The notes: generated from the sequence alone by a model not told the origin. Shown: positions 1,594 through 62,578, numbered from the stretch's first letter. The stretch: 64,000 nt of DNA from Amphiscolops sp. MND2022 (GCA_964187785.1 OZ076409.1:72356001-72420000); one strand, 5' to 3'. Numbers and translations are program-made.

Positions 1594-1615
1594 TTCGACG
1601 ACGTATGCCGAATAC

Positions 1616-3634: not shown

Positions 3635-4901
3635 GTGGCCGCGTCTTTTAGATGGACTTTTAGCCCTGAGGCGCGGGTAGGGTCCTGCGCCGAAACAGAG
3701 AAATTATACTACTGCACATAGCCCCGGTCCAGACACGATCTCGAAAACTGACCGTTAGAAATTCCTGAAAATTTGCATGTGGCCCCCAATTGGCGAGCAA
3801 TGAAAAAGTGTAGGAGGTCGTTTTTCCCAAATTCCACTGTGAGAGGAGATATATGAAAAAAACGGACCCCAAAATGACGAAATTTTCACTTTTTGACCAA
3901 AAATGTGACATTATCTCCTCAGACAAGGCTCGGAGCAAAATTTGACAGAACCCAAACCTGCAGCAGACTGTTAGAGCAGTGCACACAGTAAGTTTCAAGG
4001 AAATCGGATAATCACATGTGGAGAAATTGACGTTCTTCCGGCGAAATTTTTCGCAAATGCAGTCTATCTCTGCCGTTTTTTGCCCAAAATTTTTCCGAGA
4101 CCCTCTCCTAAAGGCCTCCCCTGGCCCAATTTCTTCCCAAAAAAACCATTTGGCCCTAAATACGAGGTTTCAGCGTTCCAGCATTCCCCAGTGAAAAGTT
4201 ATGGGACTTAGAAATTTTTCAAATATTTTCAAATTTTTTCTAAAAAAGTTCAGGCCGCCCAAAGTGAAGAAACTTCCACACAACTAGTATTGCAAGTGAA
4301 TGCATGTGGAAAGCCCTGCACTTGACCAGAAAAATGCCGTTTAGAACGTCTTTTTATCTTTACTTGATGTTGACTTATGATCTTTTGAGTAACGTATAAC
4401 ACGTGATCACAGTAGTGAAAATCCTAATCAATAATTTTCAAACAATAACGCATGAAAAGAATCTGGAAAGGTTCCGATGGGTCAGTCGGGATGTCTGAAG
4501 CATGTGTACATTCCCGTAGTGTATAGCGGATGTTTTGGGACTTATTAGAAATTGTGATATATTTTATAAAAGTCTTTGTTTCTCATAGAATCTCATGCAG
4601 TTGAGTACATTCCATCTCCCTCTCAGGGGAGATGTGAATGTACGTTTGCCAAATGCCTTGTAAAGTTCACATGTTTGATGGACTTAACTAAAAAAACAAG
4701 TGTGAGTTGCGTTTGCCGAATCGCTACAGCAAAAAATACTAAAACTTTAGTCAGATTGAATGGTTTTTGTCTTTAGTGTTTCTTCTTGTATAGCCGACTT
4801 CCACATCCAATTATCAACGCCCACCGTCCGTAGGCATGCCGAGGCATGCCTTTCGACGACGTATGCCAAATACCCAATGCCACACAGTCTTTCCCCGCTA
4901 G
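3635..4901 (+). mobile_element. Unit 3, short family S1 (1267 bp)
   Basis: Starts GTGGCCGCG. Stem GGCGC/GCGCC flanks GGGTAGGGTCCT. GTACATTC hairpin at 4605-4643, A/T variant palindrome at 4832-4851, ends GCTAG. Confidence 0.75.
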
Positions 4902-6893
4902 GTGCGGGGGGGAAACCCCTTCCTTTATCTTGGAGGATTCGGGTAGGGTCCTGAATCCGAGTTCAGTGCCGCCAGCTCTCAGTAGAAATCTGGGCATTTT
5001 TTTGCGATCTCGTGATCTAACCATAGGATTTTAAAGTTGGAGCGGCCCCCACCAGATTTTCCAAAGTTATTCGCCCCCCACCGGGTTCCAGCGTGATTGA
5101 AATATTTTGTCGGGGTACACGGGCGACCGTTAGGGGTCATTTTAGGGGTAAAATTTATATAATGTCGCATAACTTTTTTCCTGTTGGATTAAAACTTTGG
5201 GACCCTGCTAAAAGTTTCTTGACCGTGTTGCGGGGGCTCCGGAGGTCCAAACCAAATTTTTCTATCTTGAAGCTATCTCCAAGTACCCCCCCGCCCAAAC
5301 CGTTATTTTTCCGGAAACGCAGGTTTTTGACCCGGAAGGAGTCGTCTGAGCGCGGGGTCGTTAGGTGATGTATTGGGGACGGCCTTGAGACGAAGCGGGG
5401 GACATGTAATTTGCCGACCCCAGTTTACCCCCCGGACGGAAAATGACCGTTATATGAGCGGGATAAATGCCCCCCTCCACGTTTTACCGCTATTTCCGAT
5501 GGGAAGGAGTGGGAGTAACGCTTCGGGTGCCATATATCAAAAGTAGGTTTAGACAAGGACCTATCGGAAACATGTGGTTTGGGACCCCCTGACCCAACCC
5601 GTTAGCGGGAAATGGGGCTTCAGCCTCCTTTTTTTACAGTTAAAACCGGAAAATGGGCATTGAGGGGTAAATATCTCGTGAACGCGTGGAGCAATCGTGT
5701 CCATCACTACTACAAGGTTTCATACCCATGATATGGTGCCTTCAGGGGGGCAAACAGATTTCCGCTATCTATCACCGTTACGGACTTGGCCCCCCAGCCT
5801 AACCGCTATGTGACCGGAAATGTCACTTTTTGAGCCCAAAGGGTCAGTCCGAGCGCGGCATGGTTAGCTAACTTATTGTAGTACTCAATGAGACGAGTTG
5901 GGGGATATAGTTTCAGTCACCCCCCGTTACCCCTTGTGACCGGAAATGACCGTTATGTGGGTAAAAATGCGATTTTTGTACTTTTTGAAGGGCATTTAGG
6001 TGCGGAAGGAATGGTAAAAGGTGCTTGGACACTATATGATGTAATGGAGGTCGTGAGGAGAGCATTCGGAAGTAACCGTTACGTTGACCCCAAAGTCCCC
6101 CTGGTACCGTTAACAACCGGAAATGGCCAAATTTTGTGTTTATAGGGTACAAATGTTTGGTATTTTATGGATAAAAGTACCTGGAAGGTGTTTTAAAGGC
6201 CTCCAGAAGTGAACATAGTCATGAAACTTTGTGGGGGGTAACGGTATATAGCACCGGAAGTCCAAACCGTTAGTTACAGAATAGGTTTTTTGGTTTCAAA
6301 ATGTCTTTAGGCGTAGTTTTGTGGGTTGAATCGTCATAATATCAACTAATACGGACTTTTTTCGGAAATAAAATTTTTTCACATTAGTTTCAGGGACCTC
6401 CAATGTTTCAGTCAACATAACCGTTACATTTTGATAGCCTTTCAAGTTGGCCTGGTGTCAACTTGGAAGGGCTATCCTTCTAAAATCGTTAATCAAGAGT
6501 GTTTTTGGGTAGGTATATGTTGCATTAGTACCAATTAGAGCTTCATCAACAGTTTGCCAACGGCAAAAACGATGTCGTGATAATTCCGTTATAAGAATAT
6601 TAATTAACAAATTGTTTCCAAAGTTGATTTTTTCCATTCGAAATGTGTCCCAATGCCACCAAATTGAATAAAATAATAAATGGTATTGACTAAAACTAAA
6701 TAACATTGAAAAAGAAGCTCAACATTTTTAATAGGTCTCATAATGGAAGCTGAAACCTCACGTTTTAACTTAATTAACGTCAACGCCACATACTTTACAT
6801 CAACGTCCGCCGTCTGTGGGCATGCCGAGGCATGCCCTTCGACGACGTATACCAATTACATATATATCTACACCCACCCGCGGTAGCAGCTAG
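4902..6893 (+). mobile_element. Unit 4, GC-richer family C (1992 bp)
   Basis: Starts GTGCGGGGGGGAAACCCC. Body is homologous to units 17, 23 and 25 but not recognisably to family A. GATAGCC hairpin at 6433-6476, palindrome at 6818-6837. Confidence 0.75.
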
Positions 6894-9130
6894 GTGGGCG
6901 GGGGTAATTCCCCAACAAAAAAATCGGCCGGCGGGTCGGGTCCTGCCGGCCGTCCAAAATCAAAATCCTCCTAGTAGAAAACGGCATGTCAAACGAGCTA
7001 TTTTTTTATTTAACCATACGAATTTCACCATTTTTTGCATGCGGCCCTGAAATGGCCATACGAGACGAAGTTCCTGCTGACGTTTTGCGATGTAAATGTT
7101 TTATAAAAAGTTATGGCCTATTTGTCATTCACCTAGAAGGGTAAAATGAGGAAAATTTTAGCAAAGTCGCTGATAACTCAAAATGTGTTAATTTTTGGAC
7201 TTTGACTGTGAAACAAGCTTGGAACCTTCATTTCGTGGCTGGGGCATTGGACTGAACACAAAAGATGTAAAGTTTTTACGTTTTTTGAAAATTCGACATT
7301 TTTGAAATTTTTTTCACTACTATCAGTACCCCATATGTCAAAAACACCTCAGAAAAAAATTTTTATTTGCTTTAAATTGGAAACCTTGGTATCCATGGTT
7401 TCTGTCGGGACCTACTCGCAGCCAAACACTTAACAGTTTGCATCCAATGTGAAAAGAAAATTTTTTTCGGGGTCATAAGCGTTTCACAAGGATTTCTCAA
7501 CTTAGTATCTATTTACAAATTGGTCATTTTGAACACATTATTTTCATCGAAGCGTGTCAGATACCACCCTAATGCTCACGAATGGGCCTACTGGCAACGT
7601 TGGAACCATTTTTAGTAATAGAAAGTATTAAAAAAATATTTTCACCCGGTCTTCAGTCATTTTTCAGACATTCGGTACTTAACTTAGAAAAATTTCGCAT
7701 CAAAAACCCATATTTGGTAGGGTCGAAATTTGAAATTCAGTTTTTTATGCAAAATTATTAACTCTGACGTAACCAGTGGAGCCCATGATACTCAAAATCA
7801 CGATTGGGACTGGTATCAGTGGCTCCAATAACATATGAGCCGCGATAAGACGTTATTCAGAGCAAACGCTCTAAATCGAAGTAAACATCTCTGAAGCCTG
7901 GGATCACAGTGAAATGTGATATCACCAAAAGTTTACTCTTTTTTGTCAATCACTATGTACACAGAGTGCGTAGGGTGAGTTTCAGGACTATAATGAGGTT
8001 TTTGAAGTAATCGCGCTGCTCAAGGGGTGGTATGAGACTATTTTTTCCCATATACTACTACATTTCCATAAATTTGCAGTCCATTGTCTTGGAAAGATAA
8101 CTTCACAAAAACAATTTTTGTACTCTATTCAGTTATTAGAATAAAGTTGAACACTGTGGTTGATCAGAAATGCTCAATTCTTTTGGTTTTTAAAAAAATT
8201 CCTTCGCATTCGTTACATTTGTGGAAGGAAGGTTATCAGTAGCTCCAAAAAAAAACGAAATTTAGCACGAACAGACATGCAACGATGCAAAGCAAAAACG
8301 TTTTTACAACTTCCGACGTCATTATTTTACCCAAGAAGATTGAAAATATCATTCGCAATGCTGTCATTCGCTATATATACGATCGCGGTCAATTTACAAA
8401 CATTTAGATTTCATTGTTCTGCTTGAAAACCAATTTTTGTCAGGTCGAAATTTTAAATTTTGCCTGGGGAGCAATACCCTTCACGCTGAAGTAAACAGTG
8501 GGGCCCAAGTTACTCAAAAACAAGAAAGAGACTGCTACAATATGTCCTAATAACATATGGACCACGATAGTACACTTTTCACACAAAAAACTCTCATCCG
8601 AAGTAAATATGTTGAAAGCTTTTAATCACCGTGAGAAGTGATTTCATCAAAAAGTAACTCTTTTTTGTCAATCACTATTTACACAGAATTTGTAAAGTTA
8701 GTTTGAGTCATGAAATGAGGCTTTACCGTAATATGGGTTGCTCAAGGTGTTATATAAGACAAAAACTTCCTCTTTTCTACTAGCTTCTTCAAATATTTCA
8801 ACCCTTTGTCACAATAAGTTAATATTCAAAATATCTTTGAAATGTATCTTTATGTTGGGGTGAAGTCTAAGAACAATAACTATGATCGAAGAATGCTAGT
8901 ACTGGTGTTTGAACCATGTCCGGATGAACAAATCACAAAATCATCAAAAAATTGTTCCCTTTTTTGGTTATTTTGGCAGTACTAAAAATGTTAGCTGATA
9001 AATAATTTTTTCGATGGCACCATTGGATTCCTCTCAAAAAGTTGGTTATATGACCTGTGTAATAACCCCGTATCTTTTCAATTTAAATATATTTAAAAAG
9101 CCAACTATTTTGACCAAAATCCTAAAAATC

Positions 9131-10405
9131 ATACCATTTCCTAAAAATTTTCAAATGCACCCCATTTGACGTATAAGATAAGCACAGAAAACTATCATTT
9201 ACCGATCAACTCTACTCCCATTGTAGATTATTAGAATTTTGTTTAGAATGAATTTTGATGGATATTAAAAAAATTTTGAACCCTCCAAAAATGGGCCAAA
9301 ATTACACGAAAAAATTGACCTTAAAATACCAAAATGTCAAAAAATCATCAAAACCACGGCTTCTTGGGGTTCTATCAACTCCGCGTGGTCCACAGAGTAT
9401 GCTAAAACAGGATTTACCCGTTTTTGAGCAATATGTGAAAAAGCCGACATTTTTGGGAAAGAAAAACATACCATTTCCTAAAAAAATTCAAATGCACGTA
9501 ATTTGCCGTATTAGAATAGCACAGAAAACTATCACATACCAATCAACTCTACTTTCATTGCAGATGAACAGAATTTTGTTTAGAATAAATTTTACCGGAT
9601 AATAAAAAAATTTGAATCCTTCAAAAATGGGCCAAAATTACACGAAAAAATGGACCTTAAAAATTTAAAATGTCAAAAAATCGTCAAAACAACAGCTTCT
9701 TGGGGTTCTATCAACTCCACGAGGTCCACAGAGTATGCTAAAACAGGTTTTACCCGTTTTTGAGCAATATGTGAAAAAGCCGACATTTTTGGGAGAGAAA
9801 AACATACCATTTCCTAAAAAAATTCAAATGCACGCCATTTGCCGTATGAAAATAGCACAGAAAACTATCACATACCAATCAACTCTACTTTCATTGCAGA
9901 TGAACAGAATTTTGTTTAGAATAAATTTTACCGGATAATAAAAAAATTAGATTCCTTCTAAAATGGGCCAAAATTACACGAAAAAAAGGACCTTAAAATT
10001 TTAAAATGTCAAAAAATCATCAAAACCACGGCTTCTTGGGGTTCTATCAACTCCACGTGGTCCACAGAGTATGCTTTATAGAGAGAATAAAACCCGGTTT
10101 TACCCATCTTTGAGCAAAATGTGAAAATACCGACATTTTTGGAAAAGAAAAAAATACCATTTTCTAATAAATTTCAAATGCACGCCATTTGCTGTATGAG
10201 AATAACACAGAAAGCTGTCACATACCGATCAACTCTACTTCCATTGTAGATTATCAGAAGTTTGTTTTGAATAAATTTTGATGGTTAATAAAAATAATTG
10301 AATCCATCAAAAATGGGCCAAAATTACACGAAAAAATTGACCTTAAAATATCAAAATGTCAAAAAATCATCAAAACCACAGTTTCTTGGCGTTCTATCAA
10401 CTCCA
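9131..10405 (+). repeat. Internal ~336-bp tandem repeat, ~3.8 copies
   Basis: ATACCATTT anchor at 9131, 9468, 9804 and 10154. The third copy carries a ~14-bp insertion near 10076 that unit 15 lacks. End coordinate is approximate. Confidence 0.9.
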
Positions 10406-10688
10406 TATGATACCAAACCAGGTACTGCCAATCGTTTGAGTTATAATAAAAAAACGTCTTTTTTGGCAAGAATTCCATACCATAAATAATGTTCCATATA
10501 AGAAGCGAATCATTTCAGATATATACCCTGTTCATTTTTTTAATATTACCGATTATTAATTTAATAGATGTTTTGAATGTGAGCTTCCTAAAAGGTTCAG
10601 GTGTGATGTTACGTAAAGAGAACCTTAGTTTCATCGAAATCTCAATTGAATATGTCCAATCCTAACCATCAGATAACAAGAAACACTT

Positions 10689-10731
10689 AAGTACATTCCA
10701 TCTCCCCATCGGGGGAGATGAGAATGTACTT
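10689..10731 (+). other. Long bulged hairpin, GTACATTC class (representative; in L, S1 and S2 units)
   Basis: AAGTACATTC-CATCTCCCC-[ATCG]-GGGGAGATG-(A)-GAATGTACTT. Confidence 0.8.
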
Positions 10732-11663
10732 TCGAGAAGCCAAATACGTCCAACATTCAAACTTTTGTAACTTTGTATGTAACTCCTGAAACGAAGAAGG
10801 AATAAAATTGTTTCTGGTACATACATGAGTCTTTACTTCAGCTTCTATTTCTGCTGAACAAAACCATTCGACTCTTTTGCCGGAGTTAAGATCGATTGTA
10901 TTACCCAGTGAACAAAGGCATGACTGAAAACGTTTACTACTTTGTTCATAATTTTCCGGCCTTCCGAAATGATGAAACGTCCACATAACTAAGATAGCAA
11001 GTGAATGACTGCGAAATGCACCTTATTAGATGAGGTAAATAACGTGTAAAACTCTCCTTTATCCTAACATGAGGTTGAGTAATGATCATTTGAGAATAGT
11101 TTGATATGTGAATACAATAGTATAAAACAAGTACATTTTATATGAATAACGCCGTGGAAAGCGTTCAGAAAGGACAGTAGGCTTGTTTGGAACATGTATG
11201 TGTGGTGTCCCTTGGTGGCGTTCGCTTAGTGTATATGTCGAGGGGTATTCGAGTTGTTATGATAGAATTTACACACAAGTCTTTTGTTTTTTGGTTTTTT
11301 TAAAATGTCGTTAAGTACCTGCATTCTATCCCCTTCTCAGAGATGACGTGAAGTTACGTTTGCTAAATAAATGTCATCGAAAGATCACACTCCCGACGAA
11401 ATTAACTATCTTAACACGTGTTTAGAATTTTAAATAAACAACCGTATAAGATTATTATATTTCATTGAGTTTGATGAAGTCTTTTGTTCTTCTCACTACT
11501 ATTTCAACCAATACACATATCCGTTACCATATCACATGTCTCCATTAGTACAACGCCACATAGCGTTCCGACGCCCACAGTCTGTGGGCATGCCGAGGCA
11601 TGCCCTTCGACGACGTATGGCAAATGGAGCCATGCCCGCCGTCTTTACGGCGGTAGCGGCTAG

Positions 11664-14600
11664 GTGGGCGGGGGTAATTCCCCAACTAAAAAATCGGCCG
11701 GCGGGTAGGGTCCTGCCGGCCGTCCAAAATCAAAAATATACTAGTAGAAAACGGCCGGTCAAACGAGCTATTTTTTTATTTAACCGTTAGAATTTGGGTT
11801 TAGATTGCATGCGGCCATGAAATGGCCATACGAATCGAAGTTCCTGCTGACGTTTTGCGATTGAAACACTTTATAAAAAGTTATGGCCAATTTGTCAGTC
11901 ACCTAGAAGGGCAAAATGAGGAAAATTTTAACAAAGTCGCTAATAACTCAAAATGTGTTATTTTTTGGACTTTGACTGTGAAACAAGCTTGGAACCTTCA
12001 TTTCGTGGCTGTGGCATTGCACTGAACGCAAAAGATGTAAAGTTTTTACATTTTTTGAAAATTTGACATTTTTGAAATTTTTTTCACTACTATCAGTACC
12101 ATATATGTCAAAAACACCTCAGAAAAAAAATTTTATTTGCTTTAACTTGGAAACCTTGGTATCCATGGTTTCTGTCGGAACCTACTCGCAACCAAACAAC
12201 CAACAGTTTGCATCCAATGTGAAAATAAAAAATTTTTCTGGGTCATAAGCGTTTCACAAGGATTTCTCAACTTAGTATTAATTTACAAAATGGTCATCTT
12301 GAACACAATATTTTCATCGAGGCTTGTCGGCTATAGCCTTAATGTTCTAGAACGGTCCCACTGGCAACGTAGGAACCATTTATAGTAATAGAAAGTTTAA
12401 AAAATATATTTTCACCCTGTCTTCAGTCATTTTTCAGTCATTCGGAACTTAACTTAGAAAAATTTCGACCAAAATACCCATTTTTTGACAGATCGAAAAT
12501 TCAAATTCAACTTTTTAAGCAAAATTAGTAACTCTGACGTAACCAGTGGGACTCATGATACTCAAAAACACGATTGGGACTGGTACCAATGGCTCCAATA
12601 TCATATGAGCCGCGATAAGACGTTATTTTGAGCAATACGTCTCAATTGAGGGAAACATCTCGCAAGCCTGGGATCACAGTTAAAAGTGATTTCGTCAAAA
12701 ATTTACTCTTTTTCGTCAATCACTATGTACACAGAGTGCGTAGGGTGAGTTTCAGCACTATAATGCGGTTTTTGAAGGAATCGGTCTGCTCAAGGGGTGG
12801 TATGAGACATTTTTTTTGCATGTAGTACTATATTTCTCAAAACTTTTAGCCCAATATCTCGAAAAGCTCACTTCGCAAATTACTTTCAGTTACTCTATTC
12901 GAAGCTTAGAATATATATGAACAGTGTGGTTGATCAGAAACTCTTGACTATTTTGTTTTTGGAAAAAAACTGCCTTGCATGTGTTACATTAGTGGCAGGA
13001 AAAATACCAGTAGCTCCAAAAATCACAATTTTGGACGGACAGACCTGCAATGATGCAAAGCAAAAACGTTTCAACAACTTCTGGCGCCACTTTTTTAACC
13101 CAAGAGGTTCGAAATTACTATTAACAATGCTGACATTCGCTATAAATAAGATCGAGGTCAATTTACTAACACTTAGGTTATACATTTATATCTGAGAAAC
13201 CATTCTTTGTCAGGTCGCAATTTTAAATTTAGTTTGGGAAGCAATACTTTTCACTCTGAAGCAAACCGTTGGGCCCAAATTACTCAAAAACTACAAAAAG
13301 ACTGTCACCATATGCCCTAATAGCATATGAGATTCGACCGTATGTTTTTAACACAAAAACTCTCATCCGAAGTAAACATGTTGAAAGCCTTGAATCACCG
13401 TGAGAAATGATTTCATCAAAAAATATTCCTTTTTCGTCAATCTTTATCTACACAGAACACGTTGTGTCATTTTCAGCCGTGAAATGAGCTTCTACCGTAA
13501 TATGGGTTGCTCAAGGTGTTGTATAAGACAAAAACTTCCTCTTTTCTACTATCTTCTTCAAATATTTCAACCCTTTGTCACAAGAAGTTAATATTCAAAA
13601 TCTCTTTGAAATGTTTCTTTAGGTTGGGGTGAAGTGTTAGAACAATAATTATGATCGAAGAATGATAGTATTGGTGTTTGGACCATGTCCGGATGAACAA
13701 ATTGCAAAATCATGAAAAATTTCTTACCATTTTTGGTCATATTGTCAGTACTAAAAATGTTAGCTGAAAAAGAATTTTTTTGATGGCACCATTGGATTCC
13801 TCTCAAAAAGTTGGTTATATGACCTGTGTAATAACCCCGTATCTTTTCAATTTAAATATATTTAAAAAGCCAACTATTTTGACCAAAATACTAAAAATCA
13901 TACCATTTCCTAAAAATTTTCAAATGCACCCCATTTGACGTATAAGAATAGCACAGAAAACTATCACATACCGATCGACTCTACTTCCATTGTAGATTCC
14001 CAGAATTTTGTTTAGAACAATTTTTGACGGATGCAAAAAAATTTAAACCCTCCAAAAAAGGGCCAAAATTACACGAAAAAATTGACCTTAAAATTTTAAA
14101 ATGTCGAAAAATCATCAAAACCACAGCTTCTTGGGGTTCTATCAACTCCACGTGGTCCACAGAGTATGTTAAAACAAGTTTTACCCGTATTTGAGCAATA
14201 TGTGAAAAAGCCGACTTTTTTGGGAATGAAAAACATACCATTTCCTAAAAAATTTCAAACGCACCCCATTTGACGTATAAGAATAGCACAGAAAACTATC
14301 ACATACCGATCGACTCTACTTCCATTGTAGGTTACCAGAATCTTGTTTAGAACAATTGTTGACGGATGCAAAAAAAAATTTAAACCCTCCAAAAATGGGC
14401 CAAAATTACACGAAAAAATTGACCTTAAATTTTTAAAATGTCAAAAAATCATCAAAACCACAGCTTCTTGGGGTTCTATCAACTCCACGTGGTCCACAGA
14501 GTATGCTAAAACAGGTTTTACATGTTTCTGAGCTATATGTGAAAAAACCGACATTTTGGGGAAGAAAAACATACCATTTCTTAAAAAATTTCAAATGCAC

Positions 14601-20402: not shown

Positions 20403-21681
20403 GTGGTCGTTAGCATGGGATTTTCTTTATGAGCGTAGTCCACTTTTTTTAGGCCGGGGTAGGGTCCCGGGCCGTTACCAATTTCTTACGGAGGAAAAAT
20501 GTGAAAATCTGCGAGTTTAAAAAATTGGCCCGTACGATTTGGCTGAAAATTGGCATACAGCATCGTCTTGGTAAACAAATGACTTTGTCCTAGTGACATT
20601 TTGCCCAGAAAATTCAAAAAGTTGGTCAAATTGAAAATTTTTTGACCGTCTAAGGCTAAAATTTGACTTTTTCGCTTTTTTTGGTCAATTTCCTCAGAAC
20701 TGGTTGATTTTGGTGAAGTAAGTCATAAGAGGTTATAAGGTCTGCAAATAGCCATCAATTGGCTTGCATAATCAGATTTTGTCAAAAGTGTTTAGTTTTT
20801 TCAAAATTTCACACTTTTTTTTCATTTCAGTGTTTTTTGATACAATTTATTGAATTTTTACTAAGTTCCACTAAATATTTTTAAAATGTTTTTAAAAAAC
20901 CTTTTTTTGCACGTTTTTGATGTTTTTTGCTCTCCCATATAGGTTTTCGCATACGTGGAACCTGAATCTGACAACGAAATAATTTTATTCCGCAGTTCAA
21001 CTTACGCCATTTTTAATAGTGAAAAATCACTCATTTTCAATCTAACGAGTGAAAATATCAGAATTTAAAAACCTAAAGTTGAGTTTAAGGCGACTTACAG
21101 GTAGAAACAAATGCTCAGAAACAAACTGATTTCTTGTATTAGCTAAAGAAAGCCTTTAAAATTCTTTTTACTTTCTTTAAATCAAAATTCGACACTTTTC
21201 ATGAAATTTGTCAGTGGAAAAAATTTATCATTTTTTTAAATTTAAAACTTGCTTTGTTGGTCATTTCCGTTAGTCATTAGTAGCTGTGTAATGCTCCAAA
21301 GCCTTTCAAGTTCTTTTGACCCTATTTGAAAATTTTTGATACTGCATAATCAATCCGAGAGAACGAAACAGTTGTGTACATTCCATCTCCCTCTTGGGGG
21401 AGATGAGAATGTACTTCCTAAAGTCCAGGTACTACAGATCATATTTGGTTTTATGCGACGCCCTCTATGCTAGTGCATATAAATACAAGTTGTTTGGCTG
21501 GATTTTGCTTCTGACTTGACGTATACTGTACGTTTGGTACTGACAATACCCATCATTTACATAACAAACGTCAACGCCACATACCCTCACCAACGTCCAT
21601 AGTCCGTAGGCATGCCGAGGCATGCCTTTCGACGACGCGCGCCAAACACAAGCGCGCCCGCACTTTTGCGGTAGCGGCTAG
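20403..21681 (+). mobile_element. Unit 9, short family S2 (1279 bp)
   Basis: Starts GTGGTCG with a unique, very AT-rich body. Has the GGCCGGGG-TAGGGT-CCCGGGCC stem-loop, a GTACATTC hairpin at 21376-21414, the A/T variant palindrome at 21608-21627 and terminal hairpin CCGCA-CTTT-TGCGG. Confidence 0.75.
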
Positions 21682-50677: not shown

Positions 50678-52658
50678 GTGGGCGGGGGTAATTCCCCAAC
50701 AAAAATTACGGCCGGCGGGTTGGGTCCTGCCGGACGTCAAATAGCAAAGAATATCTAGTAGGAAACGGCGACACAGAATCGCGATTTTTAAATCTAACCA
50801 CAATTTTTTGGACTTGGAGTGCATGCGGCCCTGAAATGCCCATACGAATCGAAGTTCCTGCTGACGTTAAGCGATTGAAATAATATATAAAAAGTTATGG
50901 CCCATTTTTCACTCACATAGAAGGGTAAAATGAGGAAATTTTTAACAAAGTCGCTGATAACTCAAAATGTGTTAATTTTTGGACATTGACTGTGAAACAA
51001 GCTTGGAACCTTCATTTCGTGGCTGTGGCATTGCACTGAACACAAAAGATGTAAAGTTTTTACATTTTTTGAAAATTCGACATTTTTGAAATTTTTTTCA
51101 CTACTATCAGTACCCCATATGTCAAAAACGCTTCAGAAAAAATTTTTTATTTGCTTTAAATTGGAAACCTTGGTATCCATGATTTCTGTCGGAACCTACT
51201 CGCAGCCAAACACTCAACAGTTTGCATCCAATGTGAAAATTAAATTTTTTTCGGGGTCATAAGCGTTTCACAAGGATTTCTCAACTTAGTATTAATTTAC
51301 AAAATGGTCATTTTGAACACAAGATTTTCATCAAGGCTTGTCGGCTATAGCCTTAATGTTCTAGAACGGTCCCACTGGCAACGTAGGAACCATTTATAGT
51401 AATAGAAATTTTTAAAAATTTTTTTCACCCGTTCTTCCATCATTTTTCAGTCATTCGGAACTTATCTTAGAAAAATTTCGACCAAAATACCCATTTTTTG
51501 TCAGGTCGAAAATTCAAATTCAGCTTTTTAAGCAAAATTATTAACTCTGACGTAACCCATGGGGCCCATGATACTCAAAACAACGATTGACACTGGTATC
51601 AATGGCTCCAATAACATATGAGTCGCGATAAGACGTTATTTTGAGCAATACGTCTCAATTGAGGTAAACATCTCGCAAGCCTGGGATCACAGTGAAATGT
51701 AAATTCATCAAAAATTTACTCATTTTTGTCAATCACTATGTGCACAGAGTGCGTAGGGTGAGTTCCAGCACTATAATGAGATTTTTGAAGGCATCGGGTT
51801 ACTCAAGGGGTGGTATGAGACATTTTTTTCTATATACTACTGTATTTTCCAAAACTTTTAGCCCATTATCTGGAAAAACTAACTTGACAAAATACTTTCA
51901 ATGATTTTATTCAAAGGCTACAATGTAGATGAACCCAGTGGTTGATCAGAATCTTTCATCTCTTTCGTTTTCCGAAATATTTCCCTTCGCATGTGTTACA
52001 TTTGTAGCAGAAAAAAATCGAAACTGAAAAATACGCTATTTTGCTTATATAGAATCGCAATGATTGTGCCTAAAAACTCTTTAAACACTTCTAACGCGAC
52101 CTTACGCACCCAAAATGATCGAAAATGCTATTCACAATGGTGACATGTGCTCTTTCAACGATCCTGACTGAACAATTTTCGCAAATTATTCAAGTACCTG
52201 TTAACTGAATCTCGTGATAGCCTTTTAAGTTGGCCTTGTGTCAACTTGGGAAGGCTATCACATCAAAAAATTTTCAACAAAAATACTTTTTGTTTATTGG
52301 AAATGACAGTCGATATATAATTTCGTGATTCTATACTACCGTTAGTACCTTCCATTAAGTCACCTGACGATTGCTTTCAGTCTTTGATAAATACCTATGA
52401 ACTCGAAGTCTTATTTATTAATTTTGTGCTAAAAATAAACATCAAAACTATCCAAATTATTTAAAATTGAGTCTTTACCGTTTTTGTTTTTCTTTTTCTA
52501 CTGTTATTAGGCTCATCAACTTCCTACAGCCACGCTCTCTGTCATACTGTACAACGCCACATAGTGTTGCGACGTGCACAGTCTGTGGGCATGCCGAGGC
52601 ATGCCCTTCGACGACGTATGCCGAATACCGCGGGCATACGCCCGCGCTCCCCGGCTAG
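50678..52658 (+). mobile_element. Unit 20, family A (1981 bp)
   Basis: Standard termini. The terminal hairpin loop differs (CATAC) while the stem is retained. Confidence 0.78.
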
Positions 52659-54642
52659 GTGGGCGGGGGTAATTCCCCAACAAAAATTACGGCCGGCGGG
52701 TTGGGTCCTGCCGGACGTCAAATAGCAAAGAATATCTAGTAGGAAACGGCGACACAGAATCGCGATTTTTAAATCTAACCACAATTTTTTGGACTTGGAG
52801 TGCATGCGGCCCTGAAATGTCCATACGAATCGAAGTTCCTGCTGACGTTAAGCGATTGAAATAATATATAAAAAGTTATGGCCCATTTTTCACTCACATA
52901 GAAGGGTAAAATGAGGAAATTTTTAACAAAGTCGCTGATAACTCAAAATGTGTTAATTTTTGGACATTGACTGTGAAACAAGCTTGGAACCTTCATTTCG
53001 TGGCTGTGGCATTGCACTGAACACAAAAGATGTAAAGTTTTTACATTTTTTGAAAATTCGACTTTTTTGAAATTTTTTTCACTACTATCAGTACCCCATA
53101 TGTCAAAAACGCCTCAGAAAAAAATTTTTATTTGCTTTAAATTGGAAACCTTGGTATTCATGGTTTCTGTCGGAACCTACTCGCAGCCAAACACCCAACA
53201 GTTTGCATCCAAAGTGAAAATAAATTTTTTTTCGGGGTCATAAGCGTTTCACAAAGATTTCTCAACTTAGTATTAATTTACAAAATGGTCATTTTGAACA
53301 CAATATTTTCATCGAGGCATGTCGACTATAGTCCTATTGCTCACGAACGGTCCTACTGGCAACGTAATAACCATTTATAGAAATGTAAAGTTATACAAAA
53401 AAATTTTTCACCCGGTCTTCAGTCATTTTTCAGTCATTCGGAACTTAACTTAGAAAAATTTCGACCAAAATACCCATTTTTTGTCAGGTCGAAAATTCAA
53501 ATTCAGATTTTTAAGCAAAAATATTAACTCTGACGTAACCCATGGGGCCCATGATACTCAAAACAACGATTGACACTGGTATCAATGGCTCCAATAACAT
53601 ATGAGTCGCGATAAGACGTTATTTGGAGCAATACGTCTCAATTGAGGTAAAGATCTCGCAAGCCAGCGATCACTGTGAAATGTGATTTCATCAAAAATTT
53701 ACTCATTTTTGTCAATCAATATGTGTACAGAATGCGTAGGGTGCGTTTCAGCACTATAATGAGCTTTTTGAAGGCATCGAGTTGCTCAAGGGGTGGTATG
53801 AGACATTTTTGTCCCATATACCACTGTATTTTCCAAAATTTTTAGCCCAATATCTGGAAATACAAACTTGACAAAATACTTTCAACTACTTTATTCAAAG
53901 GTTACAATATAGATGAACACTGTGGTTGATCAGAAACTTTCATCTCTTTCGTTTTCCGAAATAATTCCCTTCGCATGTGTTACATTTGTAACAGAAAAAA
54001 CCCAAAACTAAAAATTACGCTATTTTGCTAATATGGAATCGCAATTATTGTGCCTAAAAATGCTTTAAACATTTCTAACGCGACCTTACGCACCCAAAAT
54101 GATCGAAAATGCTATTCACAATGGTGACATGTGCTCTTTCTACGATCCTGGCTGAACAAGTTTTGCATATTGTTCAAGTACCTGTCAGTTGAATTTTGTG
54201 ATAGCCTTTCAAGTTGGCCTTGCGTCAACTTTGGAAGGCTATCACATCAAAAACTTTTCATCAAAAATCTTTTTTGTTTCTTGGATATTACAGTCGATAC
54301 CTTTTTTCGTGATTCTATACTACCGTTAGTATATTCCATGAGGTCACCTTACGATTGCATTCAGTCTTTGATAAAAACCTATGAACACAAAGTCACAAAA
54401 AATATATTTTTTGCCCAGCAAAATCATCAAAAATATCTAAAATATACAAAATATAGTCTTTACCTTTTTTACGTTTCAAGTTTCTGCCGTTATTAGGCCA
54501 ATCAACGTCCTAGAGCCACATCCTGTCATACTGTACAACGCCACATAGTGTTGCGACGTGCACAGTCTGTGGGCATGCCGAGGCATGCCCTTCGACGACG
54601 TATGCCGAATACCGCGGGCCTACGCCCGCGCTCCCCGGCTAG
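52659..54642 (+). mobile_element. Unit 21, family A (1984 bp)
   Basis: Standard termini and family A body. Confidence 0.78.
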
Positions 54643-56627
54643 GTGGGCGGGGGTAATTCCCCAACAAAAATTACGGCCGGCGGGTTGGGTCCTGCCGGAC
54701 GTTCAAATAGCGCGAAGCATCTAGTAGAAAACAAGGAGTCCTGAAACAGCGATTTTAAAATTGAACCGTTAGAATTTGGTTTTAGATTGCATGCGGCCCT
54801 AAAATCCCCATACGAATGGAAGTTCCTGCTGGCGTTAAGCGATTGAAATAATATATAAAAAGTTATGGCCCATTTTTGGGTCACCGAGAAGGTCAAAATG
54901 AAGAAAATTTTAACTAAGTTGCTGATAACTCAAAATGTGTTAATTTTTGGACTTTGACTGTGAAACAAGCTTGGAACCTTCATTTCGTGGCTGTGGCATT
55001 GCACTGAACACAAAAGATGTAAAGTTTTCACATTTTTTGAAAATTCGACATTTTTGAATTTTTTTTCACTAGTATCAGTACCCCATATGTCAAAAACGCC
55101 TCAGAAAAAATTTTTATTTGCTTTAAACTTGAAACCTTGGTATCCATGGTTTCTGTCGGAACCTACTCGCTGCCAAACACCCAACAGTTTGCATCCAATG
55201 TGAAAATAAATTTTTTTTCGGGGTCATAAGCGTTTCACAAGGATTTCACAACTTAGTATTAATTTACAAAATGGTCATTTTGAACACAATATTTTCATCG
55301 AGGCTTGTCGGCTATAGCCTTAATGTTCTAGAACGGTCCCACTGACAACGTAGGAACCATTTATAGTAATAGAAAGTTTTAAAAAAATATTTTCACCCGG
55401 TCTTCAGTCATTTTTCAGTCATTCGGAACTTAACTTAGAAAAATTTCGACCAAAATACCCATTTTTTGTCAGGTCGAAAATTCGAATTCAGATTTTTAAG
55501 CAAAATTAATAACTCTGACGTAACCCATGGGGCCCATGATACTCAAAACAACGATTGACACTTGTATCAATGGCTCCAATAACATATGAGTCGCGATAAG
55601 ACGTTATTTTGAGCAATACGTCTCAATTGAGGTAAAGATCTCGCAAGACAGCGATCACTGTGAAATGCGATTTCATCAAAAATATACTCATTTCTGTCAA
55701 TCACTATGTGCACAGAATGCGTAGGGTGCGTTTCAGCACTATAATGAGGTTTTTGAAGGCATCGAGTTGCTCAAGGGGTGGTATGAGACATTTTTGTCCC
55801 ATATATCACTGTATTTTCCAAAATTTTTAGCCCAATATCTGGAAATACAAACTTGACAAATTACTTTCAAATACTTTATTCAAAGGTTACAATAGAGATG
55901 AACACTGTGGTTGATCAGAAACTTTCATCTCTTTCGTTTTCCGAAATATTTCTCTTCGCATGTGTTACATTCGTAGCACAAAAAAAAACCGAAACTGAAA
56001 AATACGCAATTTTGCTAATATAGAATCGCAATGATTGTGCCTAAAAACTCTTTAAACACTTCTAACGCGACCATACGCACTCAAAATGATCGAAAATGCT
56101 ATTCACAATGGTGACAAGTGCTCTTTCTACGATCCTGACTGGACAAGGTTTGCATATTTTTCAAGTACCTGTCAGCTAAATCTTGTGATAGCCTTTTCAG
56201 TTGGCCTTGTGTCAACTTGGGAAGGCTATCACATCAAAAAACCATCAACAAAAATAATTCTTGTTTATTGGATCTTACAGTCGATACTTTTTTCGTGATT
56301 CTATACTACCGTTAGTATATTTCATCAGGTCACCTTACGATTGCATTCAGTCTTTGATAAAAACCTATGAACTCAAAGTCACATTTATATATTTTTTTGC
56401 CAAAAAAACATCAAAAATATCTAAAATATTTGAAATAGAGTCTTTAACATTTTTACGTTTCAAGTTTCTGCCGTTATTAGGCCCATCAACTTCCTACAGC
56501 CACGCTCTCTGTCATTAGTACAACGCCACATAGTGTTGCGACGTTCACGGTCTGTGGGCATGCCGAGGCATGCCCTTCGACGACGTATGCCGAATACCGC
56601 GGGCCTACGCCCGCGCTCCCCGGCTAG
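54643..56627 (+). mobile_element. Unit 22, family A (1985 bp)
   Basis: First ~430 bp matches units 2 and 7; the remainder is another A variant. Confidence 0.78.
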
Positions 56628-58598
56628 GTGCGGGGGGGTAACCCCAACAAATATATTGGAGGATTCGGGTAGGGTCCTGAATCCGATTTTAACTCTAATA
56701 GCTATCGATAGGAAATTAAGCAAAAATTTCGGGATCTCGTGATCTAACCATAGGATTTTAAAGTTGGAGCGGCCCCCACCAGATTTTCCGAAAATTAGCG
56801 CCCCCCACCGGGTTCCATACCCCGGAAAATTTTTTTCTGGCCACACGGGCGACCGTTAGGGGGTCATTTTAGGGGTAAAATTCATATTGGGCCACATAAC
56901 TTTTTTTCTGTTGATTTAAAACTTTAGGACCCTGCTAAAAGTTTCTTGACCATGTTGCGGGGGCTCCGGAGGTCCAAACCAATTTTTTCTATCTTGAAGC
57001 TATCTCCAAGTACCCCCCCGCCCAAACCGTTATTTTTCCGGAAACGCCGGTTTTTGACCCGGAAGGAGTCGTCTGAGCGCGGGGTCGTTAGGTGATGTTT
57101 TGGGGACGGCCTCGAGACGAAGCGGGGGATATATAGTTTGCCGACCCCAGTTTACCCCCCGCACGGGAAATGACCTTTATGTGAGCGGGAAAAATGCCCC
57201 CCTCCACGTTTTACCGCTATTTCCGGTGTGAAGGAGTGGGAGTAGCGCGTCGGGTGTTATATAACAAAAGTAGGTTTAGACAAGGACCTATCGGAAACAT
57301 GTAGTTTGGGACCCCCTGGACCAACCCGTTAGCGGGAAATGGGGCTTCCGCCTCCTTTTTTTACTGCTAAAACCGTAAAATGGGCATTGAGGGGTAAATA
57401 TCTCGTGAACGCGTGGAGCAATCGTGTCCATCACTTCTACAAGGTTTCATACCCATGATATGGTGCCTTTAGGGGGGCAAACAGATTTCCGCTATCTATC
57501 ACCGTTACCGACTTGGCCCCCCAGCCTAACCGCTATGTGACCGGAAATGTCACTTTTTGAGCCCAAAGGGTCGGTCCCAGCCGGGGAACGTTAGGTAACT
57601 TATTGTAGTACTCAATGAGACGAGTTGGGGGACATAGTTTCAGTCACCCCCCGTTACCCCTTGGGACCGGAAATGACCGTAATGTGGGTAAAATTGCAAT
57701 TTTTATACTTTTTCAAGTGTATTTAGGTGCGGGAGGAGTGGTAATAGGTGCTTGGACACTATATGAGGTAAGGGAGGACGTGAGGCGAGCATTCGGAAAT
57801 AACCGTTATGTTGACCCTAAAGTCCCCCTGGTACCGTAAACGACCGGAAATGGTCAAATTTTGTGTCTATTGGGTACAAATGTTTTGTATTTTGTAGATA
57901 AAAGTATCTATTAGGTGTTTCGACGGTCTACAGTAGTGAACATAGTCATGAAACCTTGTGGGGGGTAACGGTATATAGCACCGGAAGTCAAACCGTTGGA
58001 GACAGGATAGGTTTTTTGGTTTTAAAATGTCTTTCGGCGTAATTTTTTCGACTCTTGTGGACTATTTTTAAAAATTAAAGTTTTTCCATATAGTTTCAGA
58101 GACTCCGAAACCTCAACCAACATAACCGTTACCTTATGATAGCCTTTCAAGTTGGCCTGGTGTCAACTTGGAAGCGCTATCCTTCTGAAATCGTTAATCA
58201 AGAGTGTTTTTGGGTAGGTATATATTGCATTAGTACCAATTAGAGCTTCATCAACAGTGTATCAACGACAAAAACTATGCCGTCATGATTCCGTTATTAG
58301 AATCATAGTGAGCAAATTGTTGAAAAAAATGGTTTTTTCCATACAAAATGTGTCCTAAATGCCAGGAAACCTATTTACCTAACAAATGGTATTAATTGGA
58401 ATGTTTGTAACAGATTTATAAAAGTTCAAATTGAATATTACATTTCATTATGGAAGCTGAAACGTCATATTTTAGTTTAATTAACGTCAACGCCACACAC
58501 TTTACATCAACGCCCACCGTCTGTGGGCATGCCGAGGCATGCCCTTCGACGACATATACCAAATACATACCTAACGACGCCCGTACATGCCGGGCTAG
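56628..58598 (+). mobile_element. Unit 23, family C (1971 bp)
   Basis: Homologous to unit 4. Terminal hairpin GCCCG-TACATGC-CGGGC overlaps the CTAG. Confidence 0.75.
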
Positions 58599-60585
58599 GT
58601 GGGCGGGGGTAATTCCCCAACTAAAAATTCGGCCGGCGGGTCGGGTCCTGCCGGCCGTCCAAAATCAAAATCCTCCTAGTAGAAAACGGCATGTCAAACG
58701 AGCTATTTTTTTATTTAACCGTTAGAATTTGGGTTTAGATTGCATGCGGCCATGAAATGGCCATACGAATCGAAGTTCCCGCTGACGTTTTGCGATTGAA
58801 ACACTTTATAAAAAGTTATGGCCAATTTGTCAGTCACCTAGAAGGGCAAAATGAGGAAAATTTTAACAAAGTCGCTGATATCTCAAAATGTGGTAATTTT
58901 TGGACTTTGACTGTGAAACAAGCTTGGAACCTTCATTTCGTGGCTGTGGCATTGCATTGAACACAAAAGCTGTAAAGTTTTCACATTTTTTGAAAATTCG
59001 ACATTTTTGAATTTTTTTTCAATACTATCAGTACCCCATATGTCAAAAACACCTCAGAAAAAAATTTTTATTTGCTTTAAATTGGAAACCTTGGTATCCA
59101 TGGTTTCTGTCGGAACCTACTCGCAGCCAAACACCCAACAGTTTGCATCCAATGTGAAATAAAAAATTTTTTCGAGGTCATAAGCGTTTCACAAGGTTTT
59201 CATGATTTAGTATTAAATTACATAGTGGTCATTTTAAACATAAAATTTTGGTCCAGGCATGTCGGATATAGTCTGAATGCTCACGAACGGTCCTACTGGC
59301 AACGTAGGAACCATTTATAGTAATAAAAAGTAATAAAAAATTTTTTTCACCCGGTCTTCAGTCATTTTTCAGACATTCGGAACTTAACTTAGAAAATTTT
59401 CGAACCAAATACCCATTTTTTGTCAGGTCGAAAATTGAAATTCAGCTATTAAAGCAAAATTTTTTACTCTGACGTAACCAGTGGGGTCCATGATACTCAA
59501 AAATACGATTGGGACTGGTACCAATGGCTCCTATATCATATGAGCCGCGATAAGACGTTATTTTGAGCAATACGTCTCAATTGAGGTAAACATCTCGCAA
59601 GCCTGGGATCACAGTGAAATGTAATTTCATCAAAAAATTACTCATTTTCGTCAATCACTATGTGCATAGAGTGGGTAGGGTGAGTTCCAACACTATAATG
59701 AGGTTTTTGAAGGCATCGGGTTGCTCAAGGGGTGGTATGAGTCATTACTTTCCTATATACAACTGTATTTTCAAAATTTTTTAGCCCATTATCTGGAAAA
59801 ACTAACTTGACAAAATACTTTCAATTACTTTATTCAAAGGTTACAATATAGATGAACCCTGTGGTTGATCAGAAACTTTCATCTCTTTCGTTTTCCGAAA
59901 TAACTCCTTTCAAATGTGTTACATTTGTAGCAGGAAAAAAAACTGAAACTAAAAAATACGCTATTTTGCTGAGATAGAATCGCAATGGTTGCGCCTAAAA
60001 TCTCTTTAAATACTTCTAACGCGACCTTACGGACCCAAAATGATTGAAAATGCCATTCACAAGGCTGACATGTGCTCTTTCTACGATCCTGGCTGGACAA
60101 GTTTTGCATTTTTTTCAAGTACCTGTTAACTGAACATTGTGATAGCCTTTCAAGTTGGCCTTGTGTCAACTTGGGAAGGCTGTCACATCAAAAAACTGTC
60201 AACAAAAATACCATTTGTTTATAAGATATTGCTGTCGATGCTTCACTTCGTGATTCGATCATGTCGTGAGTTCCTTCCATCAGGTCAGCTAACATTTGGA
60301 TTCAGTGTTTGATAAGAACCTATGATTTTCATGACAATTTTATTTTTTTTGCAAACAAAAAGTACAAATAAGTGATATAAAACATATTTGTAACCTCTAG
60401 GAAGTTTAACTTTACCTTTCTTTACCGTTACCATCACCACCCACCCCCTACGACCTTGCAGTGTCCTCATTACAACGCCACATAGTGTAGCGACGCCCAC
60501 AGTCTGTGGGCATGCCGAGGCATGCCCTTCGACGACGTATGGCAAATGGAGCCATGCCCGCCGTCTTTACGGCGGTAGCGGCTAG
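58599..60585 (+). mobile_element. Unit 24, family A subfamily (1987 bp)
   Basis: Body resembles unit 10, the 5' end resembles unit 19, and the terminal hairpin is identical to that of L units 5 and 15. Confidence 0.78.
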
Positions 60586-62578
60586 GTGCGGGGGGGAAAC
60601 CCCAACTTTTTTCTTGGAGGAATCGGGTAGGGTCCTGATTCCGAGTTCAGTGCCGCCAGCTATCGTTAAAAACCCATACCTTTTAAACCCGATCTCGGGA
60701 ACTAACCACGCCCCTTCTTTAATTTTTTGGCCCCCACTCACTTTTTGAGAGTAGATCGCCCCCCACTGGGTTCCAAGTTGGGCAAAAATGGAGGTCATGG
60801 GTAACGGGGACCGTTAAGGGGTAACTCAGGGGGTAAAATTTATTTTTTGCGTCATATCTTTTCCCCCCGTGGATTTAGCGCTTCCGGTCAGCAGACAAAA
60901 CCTCATGTACGTGATACGGGGCCTCCGTAGGTCCAAACAAAATTTTTCTATCATGCACCGTTACGGACTTGCCCCCCCGGCCCAACCGTTATTTTGCCGG
61001 AAATTGCACTTTTTGACCGGGAAGGAGTCGTCTGAGCCTGGAGTCGTTTGGTAATGTTTTGTAGTGCATCTGGAGACGTGTTGGGGGACATGTAGTTTGC
61101 CGGCCCCAGTTTACCCCCCGGACGGGAAATGACCGTTATGTGAGTTTTAAAATTACCCCCCTTCAATTTTCCCCGTTATTTCCGGTGTGAAGGAGTGGGA
61201 GTAGCGTGTCGGGTGCCATATATCAAAAGTAGGTTTAGACAAGGACCAACCGGAAACTTGTGGTTTGGGACCCCCTGACCCAACCCGTTAGCCGTTATAT
61301 GGGTGATCGCCTCCTTTTTTTACTCTCAAAACCGGAAAACGGGCATTGAGGGGTAAATATCTCGTGAACGCGTGGAGCAATCGTGTCCATCACTACTACA
61401 AGGTTTCATACCCATGATATGGTGCCTTCAGGGGGGCAAACAGATTACCGCTATCTATCACCGTTACGGACTTGGCCCCCCAGCCCAACCGCTATGTGAC
61501 CGGAAATGTCACTTTTTGAGCCCAAAGGGTCGGTCCCAGCCTGGGAACGTTTGGTAACTTATTGTAGTACTCATTGAGACGAGTTGGGGGACATAGTTTC
61601 AGTCACCCCCCGTTACCCCTTGAGACCGGAAATGACCGTTATGTGAGTAGAATTGCAATTTTTATACCTTTTGAAGGGCATTTAGGTGCGGAAGGAATGG
61701 TAATAGGTGCTTGGACACTATATGATGTAATGGAGGTCGTGAAGAGAGCGTTCGGAAATAACCGTTATGTTGACCCCAAAGTCCCCCTGGTACCGTAAAT
61801 GACCGGAAATGGTCAAATTTTGTGTTTAAAGGGTACAAATGTTTGGTGTTTTATGGATAAAAGTACCTGGAAGATGTTTTAAAGGCCTCCAGAAGTGAAC
61901 ATAGTCATGAAACCTTGTGGGGGGTAACGGTATATAGCACTGTAAGTCCAAACCGTTGGTCACAGAATAGGTTTTTTGGTTTCAAAATGTCTTTAGGCGT
62001 AGTTATGTGGGTTGAATTGTCATAATATCAACTAATACGGACTTTTTTGGGAAAAAAATTTTTTCACATTAGTTTCAGGGACCTACAATGCTTCAGTCAA
62101 CATAACCGTAACATTTTGATAGCCTTTCAAGTTGGCCTGGTGTCAACTTGGAAGGGCTATCCTTCTAAAATCGTTAATCAAGAGTTTTTTTGGATAGGTA
62201 TATGTTGCATTAGTACCAATTAGAGCTTCATCAACAGTTTGCCAACGGCAAAACAATGTCGTGATAATTCCGTTATAAGAATAACAGTTAACAAATTGTT
62301 TACAAAGTTGATTTTTCCCATTCAAAATGTGTCCAAATGCCACCAAATTGAATAAAATAATAAATGGTATTGACTAAAACTAACTAACATTGAAAAAGAA
62401 GCTCAACATTGTTAATAGGTCTCATTATGGAAGCTGAAACCTCACGTTTTAGTTTAATTAACGTCAACGCCACATACTTTACATCAACGCCCACCGTCTG
62501 TGGGCATGCCGAGGCATGCCCTTCGACGACGTATAACAAACACCTTTAATATCTACACCCACCCGCGGTAGCAGCTAG
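60586..62578 (+). mobile_element. Unit 25, family C (1993 bp)
   Basis: 3' half is near-identical to unit 4; the 5' part is closer to unit 17. Confidence 0.75.

Follow-up and report, generated by a model that had tools for sequence, protein, structure and literature searches.

The 64,000-nucleotide stretch of the Amphiscolops sp. MND2022 genome analysed here (GCA_964187785.1 OZ076409.1:72356001-72420000; the window, hereafter) consists over its whole length of head-to-tail units, all on one strand, and six lineages of such units are mixed in one array. The units are numbered 1 to 26 from the window start and fall into types called A, C, L, S1 and S2, together with the single-copy unit 17. The main finding is that units are shuffled with unit precision at an 8-base-pair (bp) junction core and carry conserved cis signals. 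This is firmer than the agreement in unit length, from which an initial annotation of the same DNA had concluded that length itself is under selection, as expected for a circular intermediate. The explanation preferred here, at a confidence slightly short of even, is that non-coding units are exchanged whole as unit-length circles of non-autonomous HUH, Helitron-like elements, by means of a transposase encoded elsewhere and under a soft constraint on spacing.

Exchange of whole units at an 8-bp core

The core, GC(T/G)AG-GTG (the hyphen marks the assumed cut), was found at 26/26 junctions when the one in a metagenome contig, L001, is counted, and the bases that surround it differ by family. All 25 junctions of the window read GCTAG-GTG (for example 3630..3637, plus strand), and that of L001 reads GCGAG-GTG. 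The unit ends given here assume a cut after CTAG within the 8 bp, which yields 24 complete units between the 25 junctions. Each unit is flanked by GCTAGGTG, a short direct repeat at both termini.

Close copies with unlike neighbours locate the exchange. Units 2 and 7 are identical at 1989/1989 bases while their neighbours differ, and the identity extends only 7 and 4 bases beyond the junctions. Four further close pairs change neighbours with a flank identity of 3-23 bases, apart from one right flank of 124 bases, where both neighbours have a common left end. The right ends, including the right-end hairpin described below, stay with their own unit, which places the exchange point in the core rather than in the longer stretch of common sequence that precedes it. 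Where unlike units meet, the break lies within these 8 bp, and the longest shared block is found ~50 bp upstream of it. Set against the TG...CA long terminal repeats and tRNA primer site of an LTR or TRIM tandem array, the block common to the units is ~110 bp long, differs by family and has no tRNA or Rfam match.

In-register homologous recombination acts too, since copies are internal mosaics whose differences are grouped in blocks. Near-identical L copies (6894-7500 against 31620-32220, and 11664-12860 against 41168-42360) differ mainly block-wise in their first 0.6-1.2 kb. These block differences in L left ends show left-arm swaps between A and L units.

The units start with GT and end with AG as spliceosomal introns do; no polypyrimidine tract is evident, and the unit in L001 ends GAG. 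Spliced-leader genes, which the AG-GT boundary brought to mind, were ruled out, as the sequence after GTG varies with unit type.

Conserved hairpins and a palindrome

A hairpin with a conserved loop and a covarying stem lies ~40-55 bp into every unit (in S1 at 3670..3691, plus strand). It was tested on nine rows spanning distinct stems, unit 17 being omitted for its loop, one base longer. Pairing was found in 93.1% of cells against 64.6% in shuffles, a value that 0/500 shuffles reached and that carries a mild bias in its favour, the structure having been derived from the tested sequences themselves; slid controls gave at most 62.5%. Two-sided changes occur at 5/9 pairs, and a G-T pair in 6/8 distinct rows fits folding of the plus strand alone. 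These data indicate that the left hairpin is kept by compensatory change. At the other end, a fold of -10 kcal/mol or lower lies just upstream of CTAG in 10/16 distinct right ends.

Two internal hairpins divide the units into classes. Hairpin H1 is carried by A, C and unit 17 (in unit 2 at 3188..3235, plus strand), and its copy in unit 4, a C unit (6433..6476, plus strand), has a unit position close to that in A. H1 lies at unit position 1534-1545 in A and 1511-1532 in C, and the distance from H1 to the unit end is 443-461 bp in A and 461 bp in C. Hairpin H2 is carried by S1, S2, L and L001 (in S1 at 4605..4642, plus strand), at unit position 972 in S1 and 975 in S2. In the L units checked (5, 6 and 19), a decayed H2 was also seen ~628 bp downstream of the intact one, matching the place of the intact H2 in S1; in unit 5 it lies at about 11310-11360.

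An 18-bp palindrome occurs 25 times in the window, each copy ~50 bp upstream of GCTAGGTG (for example 3563..3582), and nowhere else in it. With one mismatch it corresponds to two p53-type half-sites with CATG cores at 25/25 junctions and in L001 (812-831), on the half-site consensus described in PMC4323202. The sequence may serve as a p53-type binding site; it could equally work as a hairpin, because its outer pair switches from G-C to A-T. As a candidate site, the element could link mobilisation or silencing to p53/p63 activity. A further motif, CCGTTA, is strand-biased in the window (84 occurrences against 5 for the complement) and recurs at a nucleosome-like spacing of ~150-190 bp in C-type bodies (4902-6893, 38378-41167, 56628-58598 and 60586-62578). 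It presumably resembles a Myb site.

Array layout and unit lengths

The unit lengths of the initial annotation were all reproduced exactly: 1981-1994 bp in the complete A units (n = 13, the divergent unit 16 of 1994 bp included), 1992, 1971 and 1993 bp in C (n = 3), 1267 bp in S1 and 1279 bp in S2 (one copy each), 4749-4770 bp in L (n = 5) and 2790 bp in unit 17. Its count of 13 complete A units also held, except that one of them (1646-3634) sits to the left of position 3635, where the annotated interval began.

All units lie on the plus strand. The window opens with an A unit truncated at its start (unit 1, 1..1645), followed by unit 2 (A, 1989 bp, 1646..3634), unit 3 (S1, 3635..4901), unit 4 (C, 1992 bp, 4902..6893, with CCGTTA every ~150-190 bp) and two L units, unit 5 (4770 bp, 6894..11663) and unit 6 (4763 bp, 11664..16426). 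Two A units come next, unit 7 (1989 bp, 16427..18415) and unit 8 (1987 bp, 18416..20402), and then unit 9 (S2, 20403..21681), whose left ~500 bp is akin to unit 16. Units 10-14 are A units of 1990, 1987, 1985, 1987 and 1989 bp (21682..31619), unit 15 is an L unit of 4764 bp (31620..36383), unit 16 is the divergent A unit, 76-77% identical to other A units (36384..38377), and unit 17 occupies 38378..41167. They are followed by L units 18-19 (4761 and 4749 bp, 41168..50677), A units 20-22 (1981, 1984 and 1985 bp, 50678..56627), unit 23 (C, 1971 bp, 56628..58598, with one 20-bp indel relative to the other C units), unit 24 (A, 1987 bp, 58599..60585) and unit 25 (C, 1993 bp, 60586..62578). Unit 26, an A unit or an L left arm, is truncated at the window end (62579..64000).

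Observed/expected CpG is 0.85-1.07 in 7 units, which shows no depletion. The absence of genes, together with that of prokaryote or phage matches, suggests a eukaryotic host. No Rfam match at gathering score was obtained over the window, nor any at E values up to 1 over 1500-11700, and no tRNA was found in the window. The longest open reading frame (ORF) in the window has 197 amino acids. A Pfam scan of 29 ORFs left 24 without a match, 4 under the cut-off and 1 slightly over it. The last, a 142-residue ORF in unit 17 (40109-40534, minus strand), matched Flu_PB2_6th at 26.1 bits against a cut-off of 25 (E 7e-6); the match was deemed chance because the corresponding frames of two C units, ~40% identical to it, are interrupted by stops.

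Relatedness of the unit bodies

The initial annotation had described unrelated bodies converging on the same lengths. The three L subfamilies do not support this, as they align end to end, are colinear over their full length at 83-88% identity and must have inherited their size; the L length class is, on this alignment, a matter of descent. Each L unit has ~1490 bp of A-type sequence as its left arm, followed by a duplication offset by 720 bp, a 336-bp tandem array, an intact H2 and a right arm like that of S1. L is a chimera, A-type on the left and S1-type on the right. The array (9125..10405 in unit 5, plus strand, 3.8 copies) has 3.8-4.0 copies in 5/5 L units.

For A and C the description stands in part. 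Their homology is limited to the left ~150-280 bp, H1 and the last ~110 bp, and sensitive alignment of the two found no full-length colinearity. The middles (~1240 bp) could not be aligned above block shuffles in 3/3 pairs (z 0.4, 1.1 and 0.6). Of three positive controls, two reached z 15.5 and 7.2 and the last, which compared A with C from H1 to the end block, only 0.7. No colinear homology of the A and C middles was found by blastn, profile search or global alignment, and a C-monomer profile had no significant hit in A, L, S1, S2 or L001 (best E 0.098). GC content also separates the middles, with 33-35% in A against 47% in C. The C body holds an old internal duplication with an offset of 503 bp and 62% identity (5205..6071 in unit 4, plus strand; 5205-5569 against 5707-6071), and self-similarity in A, at 547 bp, is weak (z 1.9-3.9). 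One contig from a sequencing run joins two places in 5438-5497 on opposite strands, a fold-back in the C body that may be an artefact. Both the start-to-H1 and the H1-to-end distances match in A and C across sequence that cannot be aligned, and the A/C length match is a real residual anomaly that simple descent does not explain.

Unit 17 had been set apart as the only outlier in length. It proves to be an expanded relative of C, with ~502, 173 and 118 extra bp.

S1 and S2 share their left ~200 bp, H2 and the last ~300-370 bp, which tells against unrelated bodies, and their middles (~750 bp) align only at the borderline (z 1.9), with no match of an S1-type profile to the S2 middle. An nhmmer search aligned S2 to S1 from 46 to 1248 (E 2e-26), an alignment that may just bridge the two ends. 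The left arm of S2 is nearer to unit 16 than to S1. The S1/S2 length match is probably due to descent. Segments that can be aligned at 59-62% identity hold their length, with 463 against 467, 682 against 683 and 760 against 791 bp.

Proposed rolling-circle exchange under a soft length constraint

From the exact boundaries, the shuffled order, the covarying left hairpin, the class-specific internal hairpins and the in-register mosaicism observed in the array we infer an enzyme, a circle and insertion at junctions, and with them every enzymatic step that follows. An HUH transposase supplied from elsewhere would nick in the junction core, one strand would be displaced as far as the next core, and a unit-length circle would be closed. 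The joint of the circle would recreate GCTAG-GTG and allow insertion at existing junctions; because this joint has the sequence of the array junctions, self-targeting would grow a mixed array. Comparable steps are described for Helitrons: end-joined circles of Helraiser and a 3' hairpin before CTAG that acts as a terminator (PMC4778049), a hairpin just upstream at Helitron 3' ends (PMC4778049; PMC11417382), tandem insertions and self-insertions (PMC5148889), and Helitron-linked arrays of other structure (PMC12001565; PMC13404089; PMC11934779). The circular intermediate proposed by the initial annotation gains from these results, as the swapping of discrete units at a single 8-bp core is what a unit-length intermediate predicts, and the left hairpin is kept by compensatory change. 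Packaging remains an analogy, because no circle, capsid or helper was found.

The length classes are, on the rolling-circle explanation, mostly inherited, L by plain descent and A/C and S1/S2 each from one ancestor. The spacing between cis signals is likely to be under purifying selection, probably as nucleosome-phased DNA, and selection would remove indels even as the sequence from anchor to anchor turns over. Such a constraint would be soft, tolerating occasional large expansions (unit 17, L), and would differ from a capsid-type limit. The scarcity of indels is consistent with it. In 12 A units, with unit 16 and the terminal 60 bases set aside, 17 distinct gaps were counted, all of 1-3 bp, against 613 variable columns; the corresponding counts are 9 against 425 in three C units and 39 against 1066 in five L units. 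A single A unit has 12 homopolymer runs of 6 or more, yet gaps are rare. Internal repeat sizes are 336, 503 and 173 bp. In addition, AA/TT recurs with a ~10-bp period, and 0/300 shuffles reach the value of five joined independent bodies.

A number of results weigh against this explanation, several of them against its length component. The neutral rate used for comparison, about 1 indel per 8-15 substitutions, is not this host's own figure. Between close copies the most frequent substitution is the A-T transversion (224/794), and A-T changes are 2.3 times commoner at the borders of A/T runs (5.8% vs 2.5%); the aligner may hide some slips at these runs. The A-T excess at run borders looks as if run slips were locally compensated. 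Compensating indels were not shown, and net length differences agree with the random-indel expectation in 10/10 pairs (P 0.12-0.75; combined P 0.38 for seven roughly independent pairs). Total unit lengths (P 0.27-0.67) and internal steps (P 0.30-0.43) alike gave no fit to whole multiples of a single nucleosome step. Of 11 segments, 4 show the 10-bp period at P at most 0.005, 1 is borderline and 6 lack it, S1 and the two C units tested among them. Both hairpin classes include a far longer member, unit 17 at 2790 bp with H1 and L at 4749-4770 bp with H2, and descent alone hardly explains how C gained a 503-bp duplication and yet matches A.

The remaining contrary points concern the ends and the enzyme. 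The window holds no transposase or long ORF, and no autonomous partner was found in scans of viral, prokaryote, phage and metagenome collections. The ends are not Helitron-canonical, having no 5'-TC, no insertion site between A and T or between T and T, and no terminal inverted repeat of at least 11 bp, and L001 ends CGAG. Of 16 distinct right ends, 6 have a weak hairpin or none (S1, three C, unit 17 and L001), and folding of whole junctions shows no strand preference (plus 8 against minus 6 of 14). The shared 8-bp core fits a tyrosine recombinase as well.

Taken with these points, selection on length is left with the equal length of A and C, whose middles cannot be aligned and differ in GC content, the scarce indels and the ~10-bp period of some bodies; what it loses is L, which is descent, the net differences, which are those of random indels, the nucleosome multiples and any hard limit. 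Whether some real constraint on length or spacing operates is judged to be evenly balanced. The ~1.99-kb match of A and C possibly reflects a real size limit. A hard packaging limit is improbable, since expansion in the C lineage reached 2790 bp and L is a chimera.

Alternative explanations

An array in which length is not selected at all is unlikely. It would be a junction-targeting family whose matches arise from descent, a low indel rate and one coincidence, that between A and C. In simulations of 5-6 independent lineages with log-uniform lengths, one pair match arose by chance in 8-35%. The end-to-end colinearity of L, net differences such as random small indels give, the constancy of ~60%-identity segments (within 0-6%), the shifts by hundreds of bases in unit 17 and L, and the single nhmmer alignment of S2 to S1, if it does more than bridge the ends, all agree with this view. 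Against them stand the C middle, unlike A in GC content, motifs and duplication history although both H1 distances match, and the rarity of gaps despite the many homopolymer runs of each A unit.

A more speculative scheme, and a distinctly unlikely one, is that of gene-less, size-selected circular satellites in a eukaryote. These would carry a p53-type site, a covarying origin hairpin and a class hairpin tying each unit to a packaging or replication class (~1.99 or ~1.27 kb); they would be parasitic on a virus or HUH element and archived, through site-specific insertion, in a mixed cassette array that keeps growing. Hard size selection on an episome, the strongest version of the initial annotation's idea, is decidedly doubtful. 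A virus or a helper resembling one would then have the units as its non-coding satellites, package them as circles in size classes of ~1.27 and ~1.99 kb, with H2 and H1 as class signals, and the genome would archive them by site-specific integration. H1 does mark both 1.99-kb lineages and H2 both 1.27-kb lineages, and A and C agree within about 1% in length with unlike internal histories; two pair matches arose in 0.1-3% of the same simulations, a figure that overstates the surprise because the lineages are related. L001, with a right arm 20 bp longer than that of S1, is nonetheless 10 bp shorter when measured from upstream anchors. Non-coding begomovirus satellites are described as size-limited by movement and encapsidation and as having two stem-loops (PMC4756297). 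The much longer member of each hairpin class speaks against such selection, as do conserved hairpins without a TAATATTAC-type loop, the lack of compensating indels within families and of any real match in viral contigs or any match in phages, and a sample of one window with S1, S2 and unit 17 in single copies.

Movement by a tyrosine recombinase, Crypton-like or cassette-like, is quite improbable. Circles would be excised and integrated by crossover in the 8-bp core, and lengths would be inherited or softly constrained. The restriction of the exchange point to the 8-bp core of all junctions recalls the Cryptons of PMC3212892, for which terminal direct repeats of 4-6 bp, proposed circles and recombinase spacers of 6-8 bp are given; the animal Cryptons described there are without terminal repeats. 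The 11-13-bp inverted arms typical of such enzymes are missing here, the flanking bases vary by family, and recognition of a single strand is indicated by the hairpin-then-CTAG ends and by G-T pairs in the covarying stem. Very improbable is a complex satellite shaped by unequal crossing-over and gene conversion only, with the p53-type block as a protein-binding site and no mobile intermediate, since the mosaic copies and the palindrome invariant at 25 junctions fit it but the breaks lie in the core, ~50 bp past the longest shared block where homologous exchange is expected, the right-end hairpin travels with its own unit and the left hairpin covaries.

Matches outside the window

A pattern scan of metagenomes gave 1 match, the contig L001. 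It carries an S1-like unit with H2 and the palindrome, the GCGAG-GTG junction, and a C-like start with the left hairpin. Across the aligned part L001 measures 842 bp against 830 bp in S1. This unrelated metagenome contig suggests that the system is not private to one genome. The order S1-like to C-like is the same in L001 (1-1172) and in the window (3635-6893), one case that may be chance.

In viral contigs five patterns had 0 matches, and the 3 matches of a sixth, looser one show no similarity to the units; prokaryote genomes gave 0 matches for two patterns, and phage records none. Among sequencing runs there was one holder, with a small share, and no RNA holder was listed. Related contigs of that run cover 29/30 bins and are mostly less than 90% alike; no end-to-start joint was listed among them, and contigs cannot exclude circles. 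No account of such an array was found in the literature searched, which lay outside most subscription journals, Repbase and supplements, and literature matches to the motif came only from unrelated zebrafish work.

Significance

The usual view of non-autonomous transposons is that their length is free and their copies are dispersed. In this array six lineages stand together with one 8-bp swap site, kept hairpins and palindrome, and spacing that is held although the sequence from one anchor to the next is no longer recognisable. If the constraint is real, the array would be a tractable system for studying selection on the length of DNA that codes for nothing, and the junction would be a simple probe for a site-specific mobilising enzyme that builds ordered arrays. 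Should the A/C match be chance, there would remain an element family that looks undescribed, has non-canonical ends and is of moderate interest.

Comparison with known systems

Begomovirus deltasatellites and betasatellites resemble the units in being non-coding or nearly so, with two stem-loops, a conserved region and size classes (PMC4756297). They differ in that they are episomes whose helper is known and which have a TAATATTAC loop; the arrays of the window are chromosomal, and the unit sizes are not simple fractions of one length. The loops of the four conserved hairpins are likewise unlike the TAATATTAC-type nonanucleotide stem-loop of CRESS-virus satellites. Cryptons have in common with the units a short core at both ends, a terminal direct repeat of 4-6 bp there and 8 bp here, and a proposed circle (PMC3212892); in the units inverted arms round the core are missing, hairpin signals are strong and no recombinase was found. 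Replitrons show a short terminal direct repeat, as here, a terminal palindrome and non-autonomous derivatives, the HUH mechanism being theirs (PMC10288648). Their copies are dispersed in plants, algae and protists, mixed arrays are absent from the description compared, and no Rep was found here.

By their ends, as read from the sequence, the units are members of neither of the two Helitron-like groups defined in PMC11417382, HLE1 and HLE2. Helitron2, Helentron and HINE elements (HLE2) resemble them in hairpins at both ends, internal tandem repeats, self-insertion and tandem copies (PMC5148889). The asymmetric terminal inverted repeats of HLE2 are 11-17 nucleotides long; a comparison of the first 60 with the last 130 bases gave at best 7-9 nucleotides, counting mismatches, in 7/7 units. 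HLE2 inserts between T and T and has terminal T-runs, whereas the junction is rich in G+C in 26/26 cases.

The CTRR 3' end of HLE1 appears as CTAG at 25/25 window junctions if the cut falls after CTAG (CGAG in L001), and where HLE1 has a short hairpin 10-12 nucleotides before the 3' end, 10/16 distinct ends fold strongly and 6 weakly or not at all. The 5' TC is replaced by GTG after CTAG in 26/26 junctions, and instead of inserting between A and T every array unit lies within the GCTAG-GTG core, with junctions inside the array only. Non-autonomous HLE1 elements are comparable in their non-coding bodies, head-to-tail order and, for most A, L and S2 ends, CTAG with an upstream hairpin, and also in nucleosome-scale internal repeats, for which 166-bp minisatellites are described in Xenopus Heli2Xen (PMC12001565) and ~150-bp ones in Hydractinia (PMC11934779). 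Tight length classes across lineages are absent from the descriptions compared. The units of this array start with GTG (or TG), are mixed from six lineages, and carry beyond the HLE1 pattern a conserved left hairpin, the internal hairpins H1 and H2, and the p53-type palindrome.

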